This document shows positions 5,002 through 26,809 of a stretch of DNA of 26,809 bases, piece by piece; position 1 is the stretch's first letter, and each line of letters starts with the position of its first letter. The stretch spans positions 1-26,809 of the forward strand of contig JAEUIB010000679.1 of the NCBI GenBank assembly GCA_016795255.1, written 5' to 3'. This DNA comes from Planctomycetota bacterium. GTDB taxonomy: Bacteria; Planctomycetota; B15-G4; JADJEK01. The notes beneath the pieces are model-generated. The model had not been told where the DNA came from. It was given only the letters and a program-made list of their open reading frames with translations, and ran no database searches. Both the position numbers and the translations under genes were made by a program.

Positions 5002-5077
5002 CGCGGGGTGGAGCAGCTGGCAGCTCGTCGGGCTCATAACCCGGAGGTCGCAGGTTCGAATCCTGTCCCCGCTACCA
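5002..5077 (+). tRNA. Initiator tRNA-fMet (anticodon CAT)
   Basis: 76 nt; acceptor stem CGCGGGG/CCCCGCT with unpaired C1; three consecutive G-C pairs closing the CTCATAA loop; GGTTCGAATCC T-arm; encoded CCA. Confidence 0.97.
5033..5077 (+). repeat. attL core: 45-bp direct repeat (3' half of tRNA-fMet)
   Basis: CTCATAACCCGGAGGTCGCAGGTTCGAATCCTGTCCCCGCTACCA, identical to 26535-26579. Confidence 0.95.
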
Positions 5078-5227: not shown

Positions 5228-6244
5228 GTGGATCGCGTGCATCTGTTCCAGCGTGGCGAAGCGTGGTGGGTCTACTACCTGCTCGACGGTCGTCGCGTGC
5301 GCAAGTCGCTCAAGACCGACAACAAGAAGATCGCCGAAGGCATTCGCGCCGAGCTCGAGGTCAAGCTGAGGCACAGTGAGCTACGCCACGAGCAGCCGCT
5401 GCCGCCCGCTGAATTCATCGAGCGCTTCCACGAGTACCAGCGACCGCGCAAGACCAAGAAGAGCCACGCGACCGATCGCGTCTATCTCGATCGATTGATC
5501 GAGGCGGTTCCGGTGCGTGATCTACGCGAGTTGACCGGCGCGCGCATCTCCGAGTACCTGACGCTGCGAGCGAACAAGGACAAGCTCGCGCCGAAGACGC
5601 TGAATCGCATTCGCCAAGTGGTGGGGACGTTCTTCGAGTGGCTCATCGATCAGGAGCTCTTGCGCGATAACCCGATCCGCCGCGTGAAGCGCTTTCCGGA
5701 GCCGGCGCCGATCATCCGCTACCTGAAGCACGAGCAGATCGACGAGCTGCTCCGGGTCGTCCGCGACGACCGGGTCTATTCGCTCGTCGCGACGCTCGTG
5801 TTCGCGGGACTGCGTCGCTCCGAAGCGCTGTGGCTTCGGTGGGAAGACATCGACCTCGAGCGGAACCTGCTGAGCGTTCGAGCGAAGCGCGACGACGACG
5901 AACGGTGGCAACCGAAGACGAAGCGCAACCGGCTCGTGCCGATTCAGTCACGACTGGCAGCGATACTCCGCGAGCTGCCGAAAACGTCGGGCTGGGTCTT
6001 CACGTCGCCGAAGGGCTGCCGATGGGATCCCGATAATCTCTCACAGCGCTACACGGCCCTCGTCCGTGCGGCGGGCCTGCCGTGGTCACTCTTGGACCTC
6101 CGCCACACGTTCGGCACGATGCTGGCCATGAAAGGCAAGTCGCTTGCGAAGATCGCGGCGGTGATGGGCAACTCGCCCGAGATCTGTCGACGGCACTACG
6201 CGCACATCGCGACGGAGGACCTCCATGTCGACGTTGAGTTCTGA
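5228..6244 (+). CDS. int: Tyrosine recombinase / phage-type integrase
   Basis: N-terminal arm-binding-like segment (WWVYYLLDGRRVRKSLKT), SAM-like core-binding domain, AGLRRSEALWLRWEDID, KTK, LDLRHTFG, MGNS, RRHYAH; directly beside attL. Confidence 0.95.
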   Translation: MDRVHLFQRGEAWWVYYLLDGRRVRKSLKTDNKKIAEGIRAELEVKLRHSELRHEQPLPPAEFIERFHEYQRPRKTKKSHATDRVYLDRLIEAVPVRDLRELTGARISEYLTLRANKDKLAPKTLNRIRQVVGTFFEWLIDQELLRDNPIRRVKRFPEPAPIIRYLKHEQIDELLRVVRDDRVYSLVATLVFAGLRRSEALWLRWEDIDLERNLLSVRAKRDDDERWQPKTKRNRLVPIQSRLAAILRELPKTSGWVFTSPKGCRWDPDNLSQRYTALVRAAGLPWSLLDLRHTFGTMLAMKGKSLAKIAAVMGNSPEICRRHYAHIATEDLHVDVEF

Positions 6245-7262
6245 CGCGCATGTCGCAAGTGGGACGACTGTCGTCGGTGGCGATCGGGATGACGTCGGCC
6301 TAGCGCGAATGGAGTGGTTGGCCGAGGCGGAGTCTCGTTGCTTCGCCTTCGCGGAACGCAAGGAATGGGCCCAGGTCCTCGCGATCTTCGATGACTTTGC
6401 GAATCGACTTGCTGCGAACCGCCGCGATGCAGTGATCGGGTGGTTGCTGTTCGAACTCTGGGCCCTTCACGAGAACTCGAACTATCGCGAGCGAATCCCA
6501 AGAACACCGTTTCGGTTCCTTGCGGTTCTTGTGCACGCTGCGCGGGAGGTCGGCCGTCAGCGTCTTTCGGTGGCGATCGTGGAAGAAGTCCTGCATCGGG
6601 TTTGGGTCGAACAGGACGAGTGGGCGGAACTGCTACCGGCGGCGGGCGATGCTCCGTGTTTTGACGATCTGGTCTTCGACGGCGTCCTCGCTGCGGCAGA
6701 ACTCGGAGAAACCGACGTGGCATCCTCGCTCGGATCGGCGCATGCGGGTGCGCTCCAGGGCGTTGGCGAGTTCCTGCGGTCGTCAACGTTCACCCGCCGC
6801 GCGAACGCAGCGGCGAATCGGGTGCATCGATTGTCAGCAGGAGAGAAAGCAATCGCGGACTACCTCGGAGTCGCTCCGTCGGCCGCGCGCGTCGATGATC
6901 GCCATGTCGTGCTCATCGGTGCGAAGCGAGGCGCGGGGCTGGCGGTGCGGTTCGCCAACGGACGAGTCATCGCGAGCTCGCACCTCCGCCCAATCCTCTT
7001 CACGCTCGCTTCCGCATTCGCGCGTGAATCCGGTTCCGTCGCGACCTTCAAGCACTCAGATCTGCGGGACGTAGTGCCGGCGTGGGCTCGCCTTCGGTCG
7101 ACACCGAAAGACCGCGGCCTCGTAGTGCGAACTTTCAACGCTTTGCGCAAATGCCTCGTCGAAGCCGGCTTCGCTTCGAGCGATCTGAGCTACACGACAA
7201 AGCGTGACACGTACTCACTGAACATGACGCGAATGGGGCTGACCGTGCGAGCGAATCGCTGA
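6225..7262 (+). CDS. Hypothetical protein; helical N-terminus, possible C-terminal winged HTH
   Basis: 345-aa ORF; GGAGG at 6214-6218 is 6 nt before ATG 6225; overlaps the int stop by 20 bp. Confidence 0.6.
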   Translation: MSTLSSDAHVASGTTVVGGDRDDVGLARMEWLAEAESRCFAFAERKEWAQVLAIFDDFANRLAANRRDAVIGWLLFELWALHENSNYRERIPRTPFRFLAVLVHAAREVGRQRLSVAIVEEVLHRVWVEQDEWAELLPAAGDAPCFDDLVFDGVLAAAELGETDVASSLGSAHAGALQGVGEFLRSSTFTRRANAAANRVHRLSAGEKAIADYLGVAPSAARVDDRHVVLIGAKRGAGLAVRFANGRVIASSHLRPILFTLASAFARESGSVATFKHSDLRDVVPAWARLRSTPKDRGLVVRTFNALRKCLVEAGFASSDLSYTTKRDTYSLNMTRMGLTVRANR

Positions 7263-7342
7263 CGACGGATCCATGCCGGCGTGCCGAGGTGCCACACGCG
7301 ACATGCCGACTCAGAGTGGTTGCACACGAGGATTCGCTTCAT

Positions 7343-8002
7343 GTGGACAAGACGGCGCGCGAACTCACGACGACCGTGGTCGAGGACCTGAAGTACTTTC
7401 GCGATGGTTGGACGCCGACCGTTGCCGACGACACGCTGCGGCGGACATCGGCATCCTTGCGCCGATTGCTCATCTACGGCGACTACGGGAACGCGTGGAG
7501 AGCCGCCAGCCTTGCGAAGCAGCCCAGCGTCGAAGCTGTCGATCTCACCGCACGGATCCTCGGACTGGGGTTCAACCCAACCGACATCGACTTCGCTCAG
7601 GCCGGCGGCGGCACGAGTAGCGATGCCGGCATCACGGTGTCCGGGGCGGTGGTCGGGCACAACCTGAGAGAAGATCCTCGTCTCCGCGCAAGCGCGGGAC
7701 CGGTCCGTCGCTCATTCACACTTTCGGAGTTTCGGCCATCGCCGGAGTTGATCGTCGATGGAATGGCGATCGCGCGCGACGCTGTCGTCAAGTTCGTTTG
7801 CAACAAGCTCGGCGGGGCGCACTTCGATCCGGACCGTCCAGGCGAATGGGAACTGCTCGACCATCTCAATGACGGACGGCTTCACGTCGCTGGGCGCCGC
7901 TGCGTTTACTACTCGATTCTCTCGATCGGTCAGGTTCTCGGAAGTTCGCCGCAGACCGTCGACTTCCTACGCCATGCGGAGAGTCAGTTCGGGATCGCAT
8001 AG
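7343..8002 (+). CDS. Hypothetical protein with NKLGGAH motif (possibly HEPN-like)
   Basis: Track ORF 7289..8002; GTG at 7343 follows GAGGA; LRRLL helix and RDAVVKFVCNKLGGAHFD segment. Confidence 0.65.
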   Translation: MDKTARELTTTVVEDLKYFRDGWTPTVADDTLRRTSASLRRLLIYGDYGNAWRAASLAKQPSVEAVDLTARILGLGFNPTDIDFAQAGGGTSSDAGITVSGAVVGHNLREDPRLRASAGPVRRSFTLSEFRPSPELIVDGMAIARDAVVKFVCNKLGGAHFDPDRPGEWELLDHLNDGRLHVAGRRCVYYSILSIGQVLGSSPQTVDFLRHAESQFGIA

Positions 8003-21286: not shown

Positions 21287-21547
21287 ATGAAGAGGTCAAG
21301 GAGGCCGGCAACACAAGGCAAGTCGCTCGGCGTACGGTCGTCGCAGCGCGAACTACTCCGCCTCACGGTAATCACCGGCGCGGTCGCCCTACTGATCGAT
21401 CTGGGTGCCGCGGCCCACGCCATCGACGCGTATCGGACGGACGGTGAGTTCTGCCTCGAAATACGACTCAGCCTCTTGGGTGCCTTCTTCACTGTGTACG
21501 CAGCCTATACAGCGCGCGGCTGGTGGAGAGCCAAGCACACGAAGTAG
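21287..21547 (+). CDS. Possible small two-TM membrane protein
   Basis: 86-aa ORF 31 nt after the lipoprotein stop, two hydrophobic segments; no family recognised. Confidence 0.3.
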   Translation: MKRSRRPATQGKSLGVRSSQRELLRLTVITGAVALLIDLGAAAHAIDAYRTDGEFCLEIRLSLLGAFFTVYAAYTARGWWRAKHTK

Positions 21548-21632
21548 CATCCGCACGAATACGCGCCTTCAGAGTGATCGGTCGGGACTTCCTCACCCGC
21601 CAGCCGCCGTAGATGACAGCGGCATTGACTTA

Positions 21633-23525
21633 CTATGTCCCTGGGCGTTCTACCGAAATACCGGCACTCTCGAGCAGGCCGTACAGGCTCCCGATCGATT
21701 CGCGGCCTTGGACAGCGTTGGTACCGTTCCTTCCCGTAGGTCGCACGCCGCTAAACGTAAACACAACGCGCTGTTTCGCTCTGGACAGAGCGACGAAAAA
21801 CCCGCACGTTTCCTCAGTTCGGTTCCCTGCAAACCCGAAGTGCGCACTGTCCTCAAGGCCAATGAATATGACAGTATGATACTCGAGCCCCTTACTCTTG
21901 TGGGTTGTCATGATAGGAACAGTTCCCACACCTTCAACGTCGTCGACCGCCGCCGACCAAGAGTTGGTTTGCAGCGCCGCAGTGAGCGCCTTCGAGAGTC
22001 GGTCGCTCGTATCCCGATAAAACGTGCCCTGCTGGTATCGCTGGTTTATCGACTTAAATGCGGCTTCGCCCAGGAACTGGATTACCTCGTTTACCACCTG
22101 CGCAAGGTCGCGCTCGGTTTTCCCGTAGACATCGAGCCGCTGCTTGAAAGCGGCGCACCATAGGACGAGACGGTCCACCTCAACTCGCATTGATTCGTCC
22201 GAACTGTCACCGCCAAGTTCGGACAGCAGCTGCAATGTCCGCGCCCAAGATTCTGGAGCTCGATCTTGAAGCGCCAACTTGAGCATATCGAGGACCGCGA
22301 CAGTGAGCGGTTCGGCAAGCAGGTCTTGCAACTCGTTCTCGAAGCGGGAGCGAACCCCCTCTATTCGCAGAGCTTCTTGGAGCTTTTGCGTGTAAATCGG
22401 CGGCTTCATCCGGCATAGCACGCAAATCTCGCGAGGGGGAACCAGATCAACCTTGACCAGGTTCGCAACGAGCCGAGCAACCTGCACGGCCTCTTCGGCG
22501 TCATCCGCAAACGACAGAATGCGGCACTCGCCTGGCTCGCGCTGATCGGAACCGAATGGGGTTGCCTCGGTGCTCGTGGGATCCAACGCCTTCGCGACCA
22601 CCGATTGGACGCGGACTAGCGCACCGGCAGAGCGGTAGTTCCGCGTAAGGCGAATCGTTCCTGCGGCGAAGTGTTCAACGAAGTACTTGAACACATTATT
22701 CAGCGCGCCCGCCCACCCCATGATGCGTTGCTTATCGTCGCCAACGGCTGTCAATACGGTCGGCGATCCGTGAAAGGCTCGATGTATTAGACGATAGTGA
22801 ATCGTGGTTGTGTCCTGGAACTCATCCAAGAACACATAACGATAAGTTGCACGCACCGCGAGGAGTACCTGCGGATTCATGCGCAACAAGTGTTCGGCCA
22901 GCTGTCCGAGCATCGAGAAGCTCAGAACCGATTTCGAGCGACTATGAAGCAAGTACCGCCACAAGTCCCCCGCAATCACGTCCTCGTGTGTCGCGTTCAC
23001 CCAAGTTCCGCTGACCGGAAGGGTCCGACCAAATGCACGTCTGACGCCATCTGTGCTCATCGCTGCTCGATCAGTGTTAGACACCGACGACGGAACCGAC
23101 TGAATCAGCTCCCTAAGCTGCCGATCGTAGAATAGCTCATGGTCGATGACAAAGTTCTCCGTTGGTTGGAACGCTGGAGGGAGTGCGGCACGAAAGTGGT
23201 CGACCAGCGATTTGGAAAGCGCATCGAACGTGTACGAGTCGAACCGTCGAGACCCCAAGACTCCGCAGCGACGCTCCACGCGCTCGGCGAGGTTACGCGC
23301 AGCGTCGCGCTTAAAACTTATCGCAAGAATGCGAGCCGGATCGGGACAGATCATGGTCTGTAGCAAGTAACACGCGCGCTGGGCCAGCAGTTCGGTTTTG
23401 CCGGCTCCCGGACCGGCAATGACCAACGTGGTCGAGGCGCTCCGGACCGCTTCCTCCGCGGCGGGCTCGAGCCCCTCCACGTCAATGGGTCGCCAGTTGG
23501 CCGCGAGCGCTTTACGACTTGGCAT
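21633..23525 (-). CDS. gajB: UvrD/Rep SF1 helicase, Gabija GajB-like
   Basis: AGPGAGKT, FLDEFQD, VGDDKQRI, NYRS, MTTHKSKGLEY, FVALSRAK; start overlaps the OLD nuclease end by 14 bp. Confidence 0.8.
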   Translation of the reverse strand: MPSRKALAANWRPIDVEGLEPAAEEAVRSASTTLVIAGPGAGKTELLAQRACYLLQTMICPDPARILAISFKRDAARNLAERVERRCGVLGSRRFDSYTFDALSKSLVDHFRAALPPAFQPTENFVIDHELFYDRQLRELIQSVPSSVSNTDRAAMSTDGVRRAFGRTLPVSGTWVNATHEDVIAGDLWRYLLHSRSKSVLSFSMLGQLAEHLLRMNPQVLLAVRATYRYVFLDEFQDTTTIHYRLIHRAFHGSPTVLTAVGDDKQRIMGWAGALNNVFKYFVEHFAAGTIRLTRNYRSAGALVRVQSVVAKALDPTSTEATPFGSDQREPGECRILSFADDAEEAVQVARLVANLVKVDLVPPREICVLCRMKPPIYTQKLQEALRIEGVRSRFENELQDLLAEPLTVAVLDMLKLALQDRAPESWARTLQLLSELGGDSSDESMRVEVDRLVLWCAAFKQRLDVYGKTERDLAQVVNEVIQFLGEAAFKSINQRYQQGTFYRDTSDRLSKALTAALQTNSWSAAVDDVEGVGTVPIMTTHKSKGLEYHTVIFIGLEDSAHFGFAGNRTEETCGFFVALSRAKQRVVFTFSGVRPTGRNGTNAVQGRESIGSLYGLLESAGISVERPGT

Positions 23526-25539
23526 CGCTCTTGGTGGCAGGCGGCGACAACGCTGCTCTTATGCGCGCGACGAAACGCGGGAGAACTGAAGGAGGACTCC
23601 GTCGCAGCTCTGCGTCAGAGAGCTTTGAAAGCGCAAGAATGTGCGTAGTCGGCTTTCCACGACCAAGGAACAAGTACCGGTACCAAAAGAACTCTCTCAA
23701 GTCCTCAGCGCTGTATAACCCAGCAGGCAATTCAACATCACCTAGGACCGCTTTTGTCGCGGAGGCCAGCGCCGCCTTGTACTTGTCCTCATCGTCAGGG
23801 ATTCGTGGACCGTCACCGCCATCCGCGGTCCCGCGATACGTAGTTGGGAATGCGCGGAGCATGGCGAAGTCGAGGTCGAGCGGCTCCGAAAAGAAGACGC
23901 CGAAGCGTTCGAGGTGATCGATCCAGGGCTTGAGCTCGCTAGCGTCACCAACGGCCAACGTGTGCATCTCCGCGAGCTCCTCGACCGTCCACGTTTCCGT
24001 TCCGTCTCCCTTGAGGGCAAGAACAGAATCAGCAGGGACGCCCAACTCGATCAGCTGCTGAAGGGCATACTTGATCCGTCCCCAGCCCCCGCCATTGCGC
24101 CCCGCATCAAGGTCGAGAAGCGTCGCATACGGGATCTGTAGCGCACTAAGTAAGCGCCAAAAGTGGTTGACGTGCCTTCCGCCGAGCGGCGCAACGGAAA
24201 CAAAGCTGGAGTCGATCGGCACATCTAGCGCAGAAGCAAGGCGCGGTAGCACGATTTCCTCGCTATCACCTTCGCCAAGAGCGACGAACTTTGCGAAATA
24301 GAGTTCAGGGTAGGCTCTGACTGCCTCGCGCACGAATTTGAGTGCGGCGGATCTTTCTGGAGGCAGGGTGATCGCGCAAACAACAGTGATGCGCTCGGCA
24401 CGTGTCGTTCGAAAATACCGAACTTCCTCGGGCTCTACGCGCGCCAAGATGGACGGCGAGTGACTCGAAAGCAAGACCTGACTGCGCATCAGAGTGCTGT
24501 GCTTACGCAGAGCGACGATGATGCGACCAAGATAATGTGGTGCGACGTGGTTTTCCGGTTCTTCGACCGCGATGATGTTGAGAATTGGGATGGCAAGCGC
24601 TTCCTTGGACAGCGCCTCCGTCTCGGCGGACGCAACTGCTTCCTGAACGTCGAACAGGGCAGTTACGATGGCAAGATAGAACAGAGATCGTTCCCCGTCA
24701 CTTAGTCGTTCGATGGGGTCTTCGGGTCCGGCAGGTCCGGGGCTGAAAGTCGCCTCGACCTGACGCAGCAGGTCTTCGAGGCGCCGTGCGAGGGGGCGGA
24801 TAGATACGTCGCGGTGTTCCGGCGCGTCATGTAACTGCGACCATCGAGCGACAACCGCACCCTGAATTAGCTTGACTCCGTCCTCAGAACCGAAAGTGTC
24901 TCGGATCGAGTCGGACGCTTCAGCGATCTCGTTGCGACCAGCTTCGGTCCAGTTGACGGACCGAAGTAGTACATGAAGCAGTGACCCGGAGACGTTCTTG
25001 ATCTGTCGGTCTGGATCGCGAGCGGCCGGTACGTAGTGGACGTGTATGCGGGCCCGCTCGTGCCCATGTACACGACTAGTCTTTTCGTCTTTCGCAGGGG
25101 TACCGTTGGGGCTCGAGATCCAGAGGAGTTCCTGCTCAGTCTCTCCCTCCGCGAGATTGCTCTGTTGCCACTTTCCTACGAGGCGAATCCGGCAATAGGG
25201 CGCCTCGCCAGCGGCGCCAACGGTCATGTGCTTGAAGCAAGCCGCGGGTGCATCAGCGCCGTTTCCTGCCGCGAGCTCGGGAAATACCAACTGCGCTTCG
25301 AGCGAAAGCGCTGCCTGGTCGACTTTGTCCCATTCTGTGCCGGGTGGAAGATAGAAATCCTCGCGAACTAGCGTCCGTTCCGCTTGCGAGAGACCAAATA
25401 GACGGCTGAGCGCTTGAAGCGCGGCTGATTTGCCAGAACCGTTCGCCCCGATAAATGTGGTCAAGTCGCCGAGGTGGATCACCTGGGACTCGGGACCAAA
25501 ACAGCGAAAGCCCGTGAGCGTAAGAGTGGAGATTCTCAC
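23512..25539 (-). CDS. gajA: OLD-family ATP-dependent nuclease (ABC ATPase + Toprim), Gabija GajA-like
   Basis: MRISTLTLTGFRCF start (GTG 25539; track ORF extends to 25650), GANGSGKS, LSDGERS signature, VEEPENH, SSHSP H-loop, Toprim GEGDSEE and LLDLD. Confidence 0.85.
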   Translation of the reverse strand: MRISTLTLTGFRCFGPESQVIHLGDLTTFIGANGSGKSAALQALSRLFGLSQAERTLVREDFYLPPGTEWDKVDQAALSLEAQLVFPELAAGNGADAPAACFKHMTVGAAGEAPYCRIRLVGKWQQSNLAEGETEQELLWISSPNGTPAKDEKTSRVHGHERARIHVHYVPAARDPDRQIKNVSGSLLHVLLRSVNWTEAGRNEIAEASDSIRDTFGSEDGVKLIQGAVVARWSQLHDAPEHRDVSIRPLARRLEDLLRQVEATFSPGPAGPEDPIERLSDGERSLFYLAIVTALFDVQEAVASAETEALSKEALAIPILNIIAVEEPENHVAPHYLGRIIVALRKHSTLMRSQVLLSSHSPSILARVEPEEVRYFRTTRAERITVVCAITLPPERSAALKFVREAVRAYPELYFAKFVALGEGDSEEIVLPRLASALDVPIDSSFVSVAPLGGRHVNHFWRLLSALQIPYATLLDLDAGRNGGGWGRIKYALQQLIELGVPADSVLALKGDGTETWTVEELAEMHTLAVGDASELKPWIDHLERFGVFFSEPLDLDFAMLRAFPTTYRGTADGGDGPRIPDDEDKYKAALASATKAVLGDVELPAGLYSAEDLREFFWYRYLFLGRGKPTTHILALSKLSDAELRRSPPSVLPRFVARIRAALSPPATKSDAKS

Positions 25540-25682
25540 TAACGTCAGTTCCCCTTGCGTATGCAAAACGCTGTGCTCGACGACAAACCGAGATCTGGAG
25601 CCGCTAGCGCGGTGGGAGCCTTGCGTGGCGCCGACGTTCGTGATCCCCAATAGCCGCTAGCAGCCAAACGGAAACTCAAGGG

Positions 25683-26306
25683 TTAGACCATTGACCAAAG
25701 GCCACTGATGACACGTGTATTCATCTTGGCGTTCTTGATGGTCGATTGGCGAGGCGCGCGTCCGGTAATAGTCCAAGCGCCGGCGAGGTCATGAAACTCG
25801 TACTGTTTGCTCGAAGTCGTCAAGCCACCCTGCGAATGGACCCATTGAGCGATTTCAAGCACCCGGCGCGCTTCATCCGCGTCAGCTTCTTGGCCCGTGA
25901 AATTCATGAAATGGAAGCCTAAGACGCCGGAATCGACGGCCGCCAGATCGGCAGTTGTCTTGATTGTCACTCCATGACTCACGTGCGTTATGGTCGAAGC
26001 GCTGTGCACGCGGAGCTTCCTTGCTGCAAGCTGCAAGCTGGTGAAGGCATCGAGTGCGCGCTCGTTGTTGGTCACCTTGTGGCGAGGGGCTGAGCTTGCC
26101 TGCAAGTTGCGAGTCGCCGCCGTTAGTACGTGGGGGTCATTGCCCGAGGCGAAGTAGGCCCTGATCGCTAGACGCGCCGGCTGATAGTACAGGATCTGGA
26201 ATAGTGCGGGGATTGCGGATGATCGCTTCTGACCGGCAAGGATCCGCATCTGATGCGTGATCGGCATCCCGATGAATTCTGCAAGTGCGCGAGATGTGAT
26301 CTTCAT
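25683..26306 (-). CDS. Hypothetical protein (207 aa) upstream of and co-oriented with the OLD/UvrD pair
   Basis: ATG at 26306 with GAGGGGG upstream; globular-looking sequence MKITSRALAEFI...ISGLWSMV. Confidence 0.7.
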   Translation of the reverse strand: MKITSRALAEFIGMPITHQMRILAGQKRSSAIPALFQILYYQPARLAIRAYFASGNDPHVLTAATRNLQASSAPRHKVTNNERALDAFTSLQLAARKLRVHSASTITHVSHGVTIKTTADLAAVDSGVLGFHFMNFTGQEADADEARRVLEIAQWVHSQGGLTTSSKQYEFHDLAGAWTITGRAPRQSTIKNAKMNTRVISGLWSMV

Positions 26307-26384
26307 CAACGGCGGTCCCCCTCTTCGGCGAAAGCGCCGTAGCGTACGCGTGTCGCTGAGCCGGCGCAATCTTCGCCATTGACG

Positions 26385-26402
26385 TGTGGAAGAAACGTGG
26401 AA
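26385..26402 (+). repeat. 18-bp direct repeat, putative integrase arm-type binding site (right end)
   Basis: TGTGGAAGAAACGTGGAA, identical to 5150-5167. Confidence 0.7.
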
Positions 26403-26534
26403 TCATGCCGCCGAAAAGGCCGAACATGCCGAACTCGAGCGGCCTCTCGGTGGCGTGCGCAAGCCTTGCGTGGATCCTGGTTTCGAAGCAAGTGACGACA
26501 AGATCCGTGGTTGCGGCGGAGGACTGTCCCGCCA

Positions 26535-26579
26535 CTCATAACCCGGAGGTCGCAGGTTCGAATCCTGTCCCCGCTACCA
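26535..26579 (+). repeat. attR core: 45-bp duplicate of the tRNA-fMet 3' half
   Basis: Identical to 5033-5077; identity begins at the first base of the anticodon loop. Confidence 0.95.
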
Positions 26580-26588
26580 ACACAACCG

Positions 26589-26624
26589 AAAGCCCTGCGC
26601 CGCGAAGCGGCGTAGGGCTTTTTT
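26589..26624 (+). terminator. Rho-independent terminator, probably the displaced native tRNA terminator
   Basis: AAAGCCCTGCGCCGC-GAA-GCGGCGTAGGGCTTT followed by TTTGTTT, 9 nt after attR. Confidence 0.8.
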
Positions 26625-26809
26625 GTTTGGCAGGTTACGACCGGCCGGGGACGCCGCTCAAAGGCGTCGATCCGCGTTGTGGCGGTCCGACACGGTCAAA
26701 AAGGGGCTGTCGGGTCGCCGAGCGTTGCGTGCGCAAAGTTCCCGCCGTGACACTTGCGCACGGAGTGCGCGCGCGTAGCGTGCCGCCCGCCAGATCTGAC
26801 GAGACCGCG

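Follow-up and report, generated by a model that had tools for sequence, protein, structure and literature searches.

The stretch of DNA analysed here (the window, 26,809 nt) is one complete contig, JAEUIB010000679.1, of a metagenome-assembled genome of a Planctomycetota bacterium (GCA_016795255.1; 899 contigs, 84% complete). Close to the far end of an island inserted at a tRNA-Met gene it carries three co-oriented genes on the minus strand: a gene for a 207-aa protein of an unnamed family, followed by gajA and gajB, the two genes of the defence system Gabija (Table 1). A preliminary description of this DNA had reported the three genes with their sizes and the 14-bp overlap between the last two, and the coordinates of the open reading frames agree with it; its placement of the genes next to attR is likewise supported by an exact 45-bp direct repeat. 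It had also proposed that the 207-aa gene is a third component of a Gabija variant. Our analysis leads to a different reading, to which we give a probability of roughly 75%: the low-GC cargo end of the island holds two unrelated units, a known Gabija system and an independent, uncharacterised island gene.

The pair of gajA and gajB is almost certainly an ordinary two-gene Gabija system. The 675-aa protein contains the Pfam domains AAA_15 and AAA_21 together with an OLD-like_TOPRIM domain, and matches the PADLOC profile for GajA (PDLC00090) with an E-value of 3.1e-240 over positions 1-655 of 659. A longer frame for gajA, beginning with a TTG at 25650, found no support in the profile alignment and was discarded. 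The 630-aa protein contains the domains UvrD-helicase (2.8e-35) and UvrD_C (5.8e-20) and matches the GajB profile PDLC00103 (E-value 2.2e-198, positions 7-607 of 612). Searching the PDB sequences with GajA at E<=1e-5 returned only TsOLD and the Toprim domains of the Xcc and Bp Class 2 OLD proteins; in a review of OLD nucleases Class 2 OLD is equated with GajA, in a two-gene layout (PMC10568477). The catalytic motifs, which had been described as intact, are all legible in the translations: Walker A (GANGSGKS), signature (LSDGERS) and Walker B (EEPE) as well as the Toprim residues E423 and D476-x-D478 in GajA, and K43/T44, D234-E235 (within DEFQD), Q266 and W271 in GajB.

Two properties of the pair had been put forward as unusual. 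The proteins are longer than the model Gabija proteins, but the best-fitting PADLOC profiles themselves have 659 and 612 positions. The match to these profiles is full-length, so that the long proteins fall into an already catalogued clade and do not speak, by their size, for a variant system. The helicase motif III had been called atypical. Its wording was given correctly, as it reads VGDDKQRIMGWAGA with the canonical Q and the aromatic residue kept, but it is not peculiar to this locus: VGDxKQRIMxWAGA is the consensus of motif III in 76 of 77 related GajB genes and is therefore a hallmark of the clade. The GajB relative of Clostridium sp. LS (locus L026, near 6073-7920) has an in-frame stop inside this motif (VGDDK*RIM) and may be a pseudogene or the product of a sequencing error.

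For comparison we used 80 genomic and 80 metagenomic loci with GajA relatives of 36-62% identity to the GajA of the window. They come from many bacterial phyla and some archaea, the closest having 62% identity among metagenomes and 52% among genomes. The gajB gene lies directly downstream of gajA in 77 of the 80 genomic and 73 of the 80 metagenomic loci (150/160), and the three genomic loci without gajB are situated at a contig end. The window pair shares with Gabija in general the domain architecture, the gene order, the overlapping stop and start, the intact motifs and the full-length profile matches. It differs in belonging to the long-protein clade, with its own motif III throughout, far from the structurally studied pair of Bacillus cereus. 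In the latter the two proteins form a complex: GajA cuts invading DNA once a restraint by nucleotides is lifted, and GajB senses DNA termini (PMC8136825, PMC10781630, PMC10681800). By homology to this model system we infer the same mechanism for the window locus. For Gabija itself the locus, though divergent, adds nothing new, its clade being catalogued already.

The 207-aa gene shows no linkage to this pair in related loci. A hidden Markov model of its family, searched against six-frame open reading frames of all 160 loci with a GajA relative, gave no match even at E<=1, and tblastn likewise gave none; upstream of gajA, more than 700 bp of DNA are available in at least 56 of the 80 metagenomic loci. 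At the closest GajA relative (62%) the 3 kb of upstream DNA encode TPR and beta-propeller proteins and no 207-aa homologue, and in other relatives the genes upstream of gajA are heterogeneous and unrelated to one another. From the opposite side, neither GajA nor GajB is found in any of 13 distinct contexts of 207-aa homologues, and the nearest 207-aa homologue (42% identity) and the nearest GajA (62%) each occur without the other. As far as sequence comparison can tell, no third gene family is conserved beside gajA and gajB in related loci, and the 207-aa gene is very probably not an obligate component of Gabija. A role of the upstream gene as third component is not supported by these counts (0/160 and 0/13). 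The preliminary description had itself named co-occurrence of the 207-aa family with this OLD/UvrD clade as the check on its proposal, and homologues standing apart from OLD/UvrD as evidence against it; no linkage was found either way. A complex prediction for GajA and the 207-aa protein (score 0.22, mark 0.32) was not used as evidence in either direction.

Exhaustive HMMER searches detect 120 representative clusters of 207-aa homologues at E<=1e-3, 72 of them at E<=1e-10, while a word-indexed protein search with the 207-aa protein returned only the protein itself. Nearly all homologues have 200-220 aa (about 208) and align end to end, which speaks for translation starting at the ATG at 26306. 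Judging from this conservation over the full length of the family, the 207-aa gene is a real gene. The protein has no credible match in Pfam, NCBIfam or PADLOC, and 65 aligned family members gave no reproducible match to a Pfam, PHROG or PADLOC model. Single members gave weak matches to UBA_4, a ParB-like PHROG, Cas4b, PD-Lambda-5_A and SocB (Atlas feature search); these did not recur in the rest of the family and were set aside. A profile search of the PDB sequences with the family gave chance matches only. The family is absent from PADLOC-DB 2.0.0 and is rare as well as unnamed: it is present in one of 400 other sampled genomes of the window's own phylum; two further sets of 400 genomes, from the phyla sampled around a Paucibacter and a Neobacillus genome, gave one weak partial match and no match, respectively. 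Searches by tblastn of 72,556 plasmids and 50,697 phage genomes, with two different members as queries, gave no match, and no paralogues of the family were found in the homologue loci.

An AlphaFold2 model built with the family alignment is of high confidence (predicted local distance difference test 95.1, predicted template modelling score 0.90) and has a Cas4/RecB-type PD-(D/E)xK fold along the whole chain. The alpha-beta-beta-beta-alpha-beta core of this fold is present in the model (strands 113-117, 121-125 and 128-135, helix 143-159, strand 169-173), with D120 directly before the second strand, and as in the Cas4 family this core is decorated by helices at the N-terminus. The best Foldseek match in the PDB is ACE1, an Argonaute-associated member of the Cas4 family (9IAB/9IAC; E-value 1.4e-5), followed by Dna2, AdnA/AdnB, Cas4, MGME1, Exo5, RecC, RecE and lambda exonuclease. 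VIA-align superimposes the model over 180-199 residues on Dna2, RecE, AdnA and ACE1 with Z about 11; in the fold comparison Exo5 and MGME1 also reach about 11 and Cas4 chains 9-10. In the AlphaFold DB and the ESM Atlas the nearest structures are uncharacterised proteins of about 200-250 aa (template modelling score 0.74-0.81), and further away stand PDDEXK_1, Cas4 and DUF2800 proteins and fusions of UvrD-helicase with PDDEXK_1. A library of viral structures returned phage RecB/Cas4-type exonucleases with weaker scores. No DNA-binding regulator domain was detected in the 207-aa protein; its alignment to the nuclease fold takes up the entire chain.

The active site of the family departs from that of its structural relatives. 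D120, at the position of the first catalytic Asp, is Asp in 86% of the members. N135, in the second motif, is Asn in 83%, and at position 137 R predominates (60%), with K and T at 12% each and T in the window copy. The distance from D120 to N135-x-T137 is 15 residues, compared with 14 in ACE1, where the catalytic residues are D148 and D162-x-K164 (PMC12094033). Mapped by strand position and spacing, the canonical D...(D/E)-x-K triad is therefore not present, the second motif being N-x-R/K/T. Other strongly conserved residues are K27, Y41, R83, F88, R96, E/D125, E151, E170, D173, R186 and W204, so that acidic (E/D125, E170, D173) as well as basic (K27, R83, R96) positions are retained besides D120. 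E170 and D173 may complete a rewired metal site. A loose resemblance of this protein to a PD-(D/E)xK core without the later catalytic residues, noticed early from its sequence, is thus borne out by the predicted fold and the conservation in the family. The window protein contains no cysteine at all and the members have between zero and three, none of them conserved, which means that the family has no Fe-S cluster.

Compared with the Cas4, ACE1 and RecB nucleases (4IC1, 9IAB/9IAC, AdnA/AdnB, Dna2, RecE, Exo5, MGME1) the family has in common the predicted fold of the whole chain and the first catalytic Asp. It differs by the missing Fe4S4 cysteines, by N-x-R/K/T in place of (D/E)-x-K, by the additional conserved E170 and D173, and in showing no similarity at the sequence level (Pfam and profile search of the PDB). 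The C-terminal domain of RecC, an inactivated RecB-like domain, likewise combines this fold with a degenerate catalytic motif (1w36_C; Foldseek E-value 0.078, Z 5.6), but the 207-aa protein is free-standing, not a domain of a helicase-nuclease, and retains several acidic residues.

The neighbourhoods of the 13 homologues are diverse. One contains an integrase, the 5'-nucleotidase PDC-S08 and Kiwa; another DUF499, a HEPN AbiU2 and an Mrr_N protein; a third is a satellite-like element of the PrimPol/D5 type with a NucC-like gene, in which the downstream gene is on the opposite strand. Kiwa, Abi_C, HsdR and an HNH protein surround a fourth homologue, and a fifth lies beside DUF4917 (PDC-S21). The homologue is flanked on both sides by genes of the opposite strand in a P4-cII-like element with an XhoI/Eco57I restriction-modification (R-M) system, in a locus with a serine recombinase, ParB/RepB, NAMPT/NMNAT and an SLFN-type helicase, and in a separate locus with Kiwa. 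A conjugative element provides relaxase, coupling protein and an orphan methylase as neighbours, and in another case an hsdR-hsdM-hsdS operon is followed by the homologue and then by an AAA_15/21-DUF3696 ATPase. The remaining three contexts are uninformative or short, two of them with the downstream gene on the opposite strand. In total, the downstream gene is on the opposite strand in six contexts and both flanking genes are in three, indicating that there the homologue is expressed and acts without a co-transcribed partner. The two closest homologues have convergent neighbours with no relation to each other. A known or candidate defence gene lies within about 5 kb in 10 of the 14 contexts including the window, a raw count from a small sample without a background rate, and markers of mobile elements are present in 6 of the 14.

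The family resembles the PDC-S single-gene candidates of PADLOC and other small nuclease-fold genes that reside in islands, as it consists of small stand-alone genes of patchy and rare occurrence in defence islands, and its members adjoin PDC-S08, PDC-S21, Kiwa, R-M and Abi genes. It differs from these candidates in being absent from PADLOC-DB 2.0.0 and in being known here from sequence, fold and neighbourhood alone.

Some of these neighbourhoods deserve mention in their own right. In locus L097 (G355:C100, 2773-11911) hsdR, hsdM and hsdS are followed by a distant 207-aa homologue with a 4-nt overlap, 10 nt further by the AAA_15/AAA_21-DUF3696 ATPase (best PADLOC matches PDC-M55A, NsnB and HEC-03B) and then by an unknown gene of 313 aa; this locus may be a composite defence operon. 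Kiwa (KwaA/KwaB) is found about 1-5 kb from the homologue in three of the 14 contexts (L092, L095, L102), with varying distances and orientations, which probably reflects a common island habitat and not a functional link. In loci L098-L101 one side of the homologue is occupied by a pair of NAMPT and NMNAT/Nudix genes (salvage of nicotinamide adenine dinucleotide), a Band_7 gene and a very large SACS/NOV_C protein, and the other by ParB/RepB and a large serine recombinase, an arrangement that was recovered in several samples.

The island of the window spans 21.5 kb from the tRNA-Met gene to attR, its far end being set by the 45-bp repeat. Between 5002 and 26579 it is not a prophage: its integrase is followed by a DUF3854 primase-like protein and metal-resistance genes, namely a resistance-nodulation-division (RND) efflux set (OEP, HlyD, AcrB family) and a heavy-metal P-type ATPase, and then by the defence cargo. 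The GC content is about 64% in the island and about 58% in its final 5 kb, as against about 72% in the flanks. Metagenomes from wastewater, activated sludge and bioreactors contain near-identical copies of 21633-26535; of the 13 studies listed, some are possibly the source of the same DNA. The host element, a metal-resistance island, has a wide distribution in wastewater metagenomes.

Table 1. Features of the tRNA-Met island and of its cargo end (positions in the window)
Feature	Position	Strand	Remarks
tRNA-Met (CAT)	5002-5077	+	ARAGORN; final 45 bp (5033-5077) are attL
Tyrosine integrase	5228-6244	+	Pfam Phage_integrase (5.2e-19) and Phage_int_SAM_4
gajB	21633-23525	-	ATG start; 630-aa UvrD/Rep-like superfamily 1 helicase
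gajA/gajB overlap	23512-23525	-	14 nt
gajA	23512-25539	-	GTG start; 675-aa Class 2 OLD nuclease (ABC ATPase and Toprim)
Spacer between 207-aa gene and gajA	25540-25682	-	143 nt; contains a copy of the 12-mer at 25617-25628
207-aa gene	25683-26306	-	ATG start; unnamed family with predicted Cas4/RecB-like PD-(D/E)xK fold
Region between attR and start of 207-aa gene	26307-26534	-	228 nt; contains the second copy of the 12-mer at 26462-26473
attR	26535-26579		exact copy of the 45-bp 3' end of tRNA-Met; direct repeat with 5033-5077

The spacer before gajA contains the 10-nt word GCTAGCGGCT twice, 53 nt apart (25599-25661, minus strand), and a TTGC-N4-GCAA palindrome lies directly upstream of the ribosome-binding site of gajA. 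Consensus scans for sigma-70 promoters and terminators on the minus strand of both intergenic regions found none, the consensus being uninformative for a high-GC organism. Contigs from four RNA or RNA-labelled libraries were compared with 21300-26809. Short ones cover parts of gajA and gajB, and one of them, for which carry-over of DNA is possible, spans the junction of the two genes (23476-23713). In the three clear RNA runs, of which only contigs were used and to which the same carry-over applies, no contig maps to the 207-aa gene or links it to gajA.

Several observations weigh against a separation of the cargo end into two independent units, or against an active defence gene in one of them. 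The three genes have 57-59% GC, and 63-66% at third codon positions, compared with 63-66% and 69-83% in the rest of the island. On account of this common base composition they may have arrived as one block, and the 207-aa gene may have entered a partnership with Gabija that is specific to this locus. The window has just two copies of the 12-mer CCACGCAAGGCT, on the minus strand: one is located 78-89 nt upstream of gajA, the other 156-167 nt upstream of the 207-aa gene. The 12-mer could be an element of common regulation, either an operator or a promoter element. The expected count is 0.19 and two of 100 shuffles reach two matches, for a motif that was chosen post hoc; beyond the 12-mer core the two upstream regions have nothing in common. 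In five contexts a homologue stands 10-262 nt upstream of a co-oriented defence-type gene, which makes a facultative accessory role of the family possible. The catalytic residues, further, were mapped by topology, strand order and spacing and not by superposition at the residue level. Finally, a defence role is deduced solely from the neighbourhood in 14 contexts, in raw counts without background statistics.

The shared composition and the 12-mer upstream of both units are also the observations that speak for the three-component Gabija variant of the preliminary description, in which the 207-aa protein would work as sensor, regulator or antitoxin with GajA and GajB in this clade. The genes are adjacent and co-oriented with a gap of 143 nt, and the same fold fused to UvrD-type helicases elsewhere (ESM Atlas proteins, AdnAB, RecB) gives a precedent. 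We nevertheless consider this variant very improbable in view of the 0/160 and 0/13 counts, the nearest homologue and nearest GajA occurring apart from each other, and the end-to-end match of both proteins to two-gene PADLOC profiles. Alternatively, the 207-aa protein could be a facultative, modular accessory, again a sensor or regulator, that plugs into different effectors, of which GajA would be the one used here. Elsewhere the homologue is indeed located directly upstream of, and co-oriented with, an AAA_15/21-DUF3696 ATPase, a SIR2-like DUF4917, a HEPN AbiU2 or a 5'-nucleotidase (gaps of 10, 24, 139 and 262 nt), and two of its partners have a GajA-type ABC ATPase. However, DUF4917 (PDC-S21) and the 5'-nucleotidase (PDC-S08) are themselves catalogued as single-gene candidates, the opposite-strand neighbours in six contexts (on both sides in three) leave the homologue no such downstream partner, and a regulator domain is lacking in a chain that aligns to the nuclease fold from end to end. 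It is quite improbable that the accessory role is correct. The same low estimate applies to the most far-reaching form of this idea, an undescribed modular Cas4-like reader of DNA ends that can act alone or feed a DNA-end signal to effectors, which would make the locus a facultative three-part Gabija.

A different alternative keeps the 207-aa gene separate from Gabija and takes its product as a dead nuclease-fold protein in the service of a mobile element, for example as a binder of DNA ends that protects or processes the element after excision or during transfer, or as a decoy against defence. The altered motif fits such a protein, with R, K or T (T here) at the lysine position of (D/E)xK and the acid replaced by N in 83% of the members. 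Inactivated RecB-like domains do exist, RecC being among the fold matches, and one of the six contexts with mobile-element markers is an operon of a conjugative element, where the homologue stands beside the relaxase and the orphan methylase. On the other hand, the family has no match in the 50,697 phage genomes or 72,556 plasmids, its neighbours are mostly defence genes and not genes for transfer or replication, and four conserved acidic residues are unusual for a dead site. We therefore regard this alternative as unlikely, if less so than a role in Gabija.

With two independent units as the preferred reading, the attR end of the tRNA-Met island would be a cargo slot. The first unit would be the canonical Gabija, with a GajA nuclease and GajB helicase mechanism as in the Bacillus cereus system. 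The second would be the 207-aa gene as an autonomous single-gene module of a rare family that resides in defence islands and mobile elements. Its product would bind single-stranded DNA or DNA ends and act alone as a small defence or exclusion protein, which would either cleave via a rewired metal site or simply cap the ends. An independent single-gene defence had been the fallback of the early description and may be correct, as it fits the neighbourhoods. Our confidence in the function of the 207-aa gene is lower: that it is a defence gene we hold to be tentative, at somewhat below even odds, and catalytic activity of its protein is put no higher, with cleavage and mere binding about equally probable. 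The family is a modest new lead and not a demonstrated system.

The useful product of this analysis is the 207-aa family, that is, a compact, confidently folded Cas4-like protein in the prediction, with an altered active site, which recurs among defence genes. If the 207-aa gene alone protects against phages, the small single-gene systems would gain a new member, in which a Cas4 fold works without an Fe-S cluster and without the canonical lysine. If the protein is inactive, it would be the free-standing counterpart of the dead nuclease domains in RecC-type machines.

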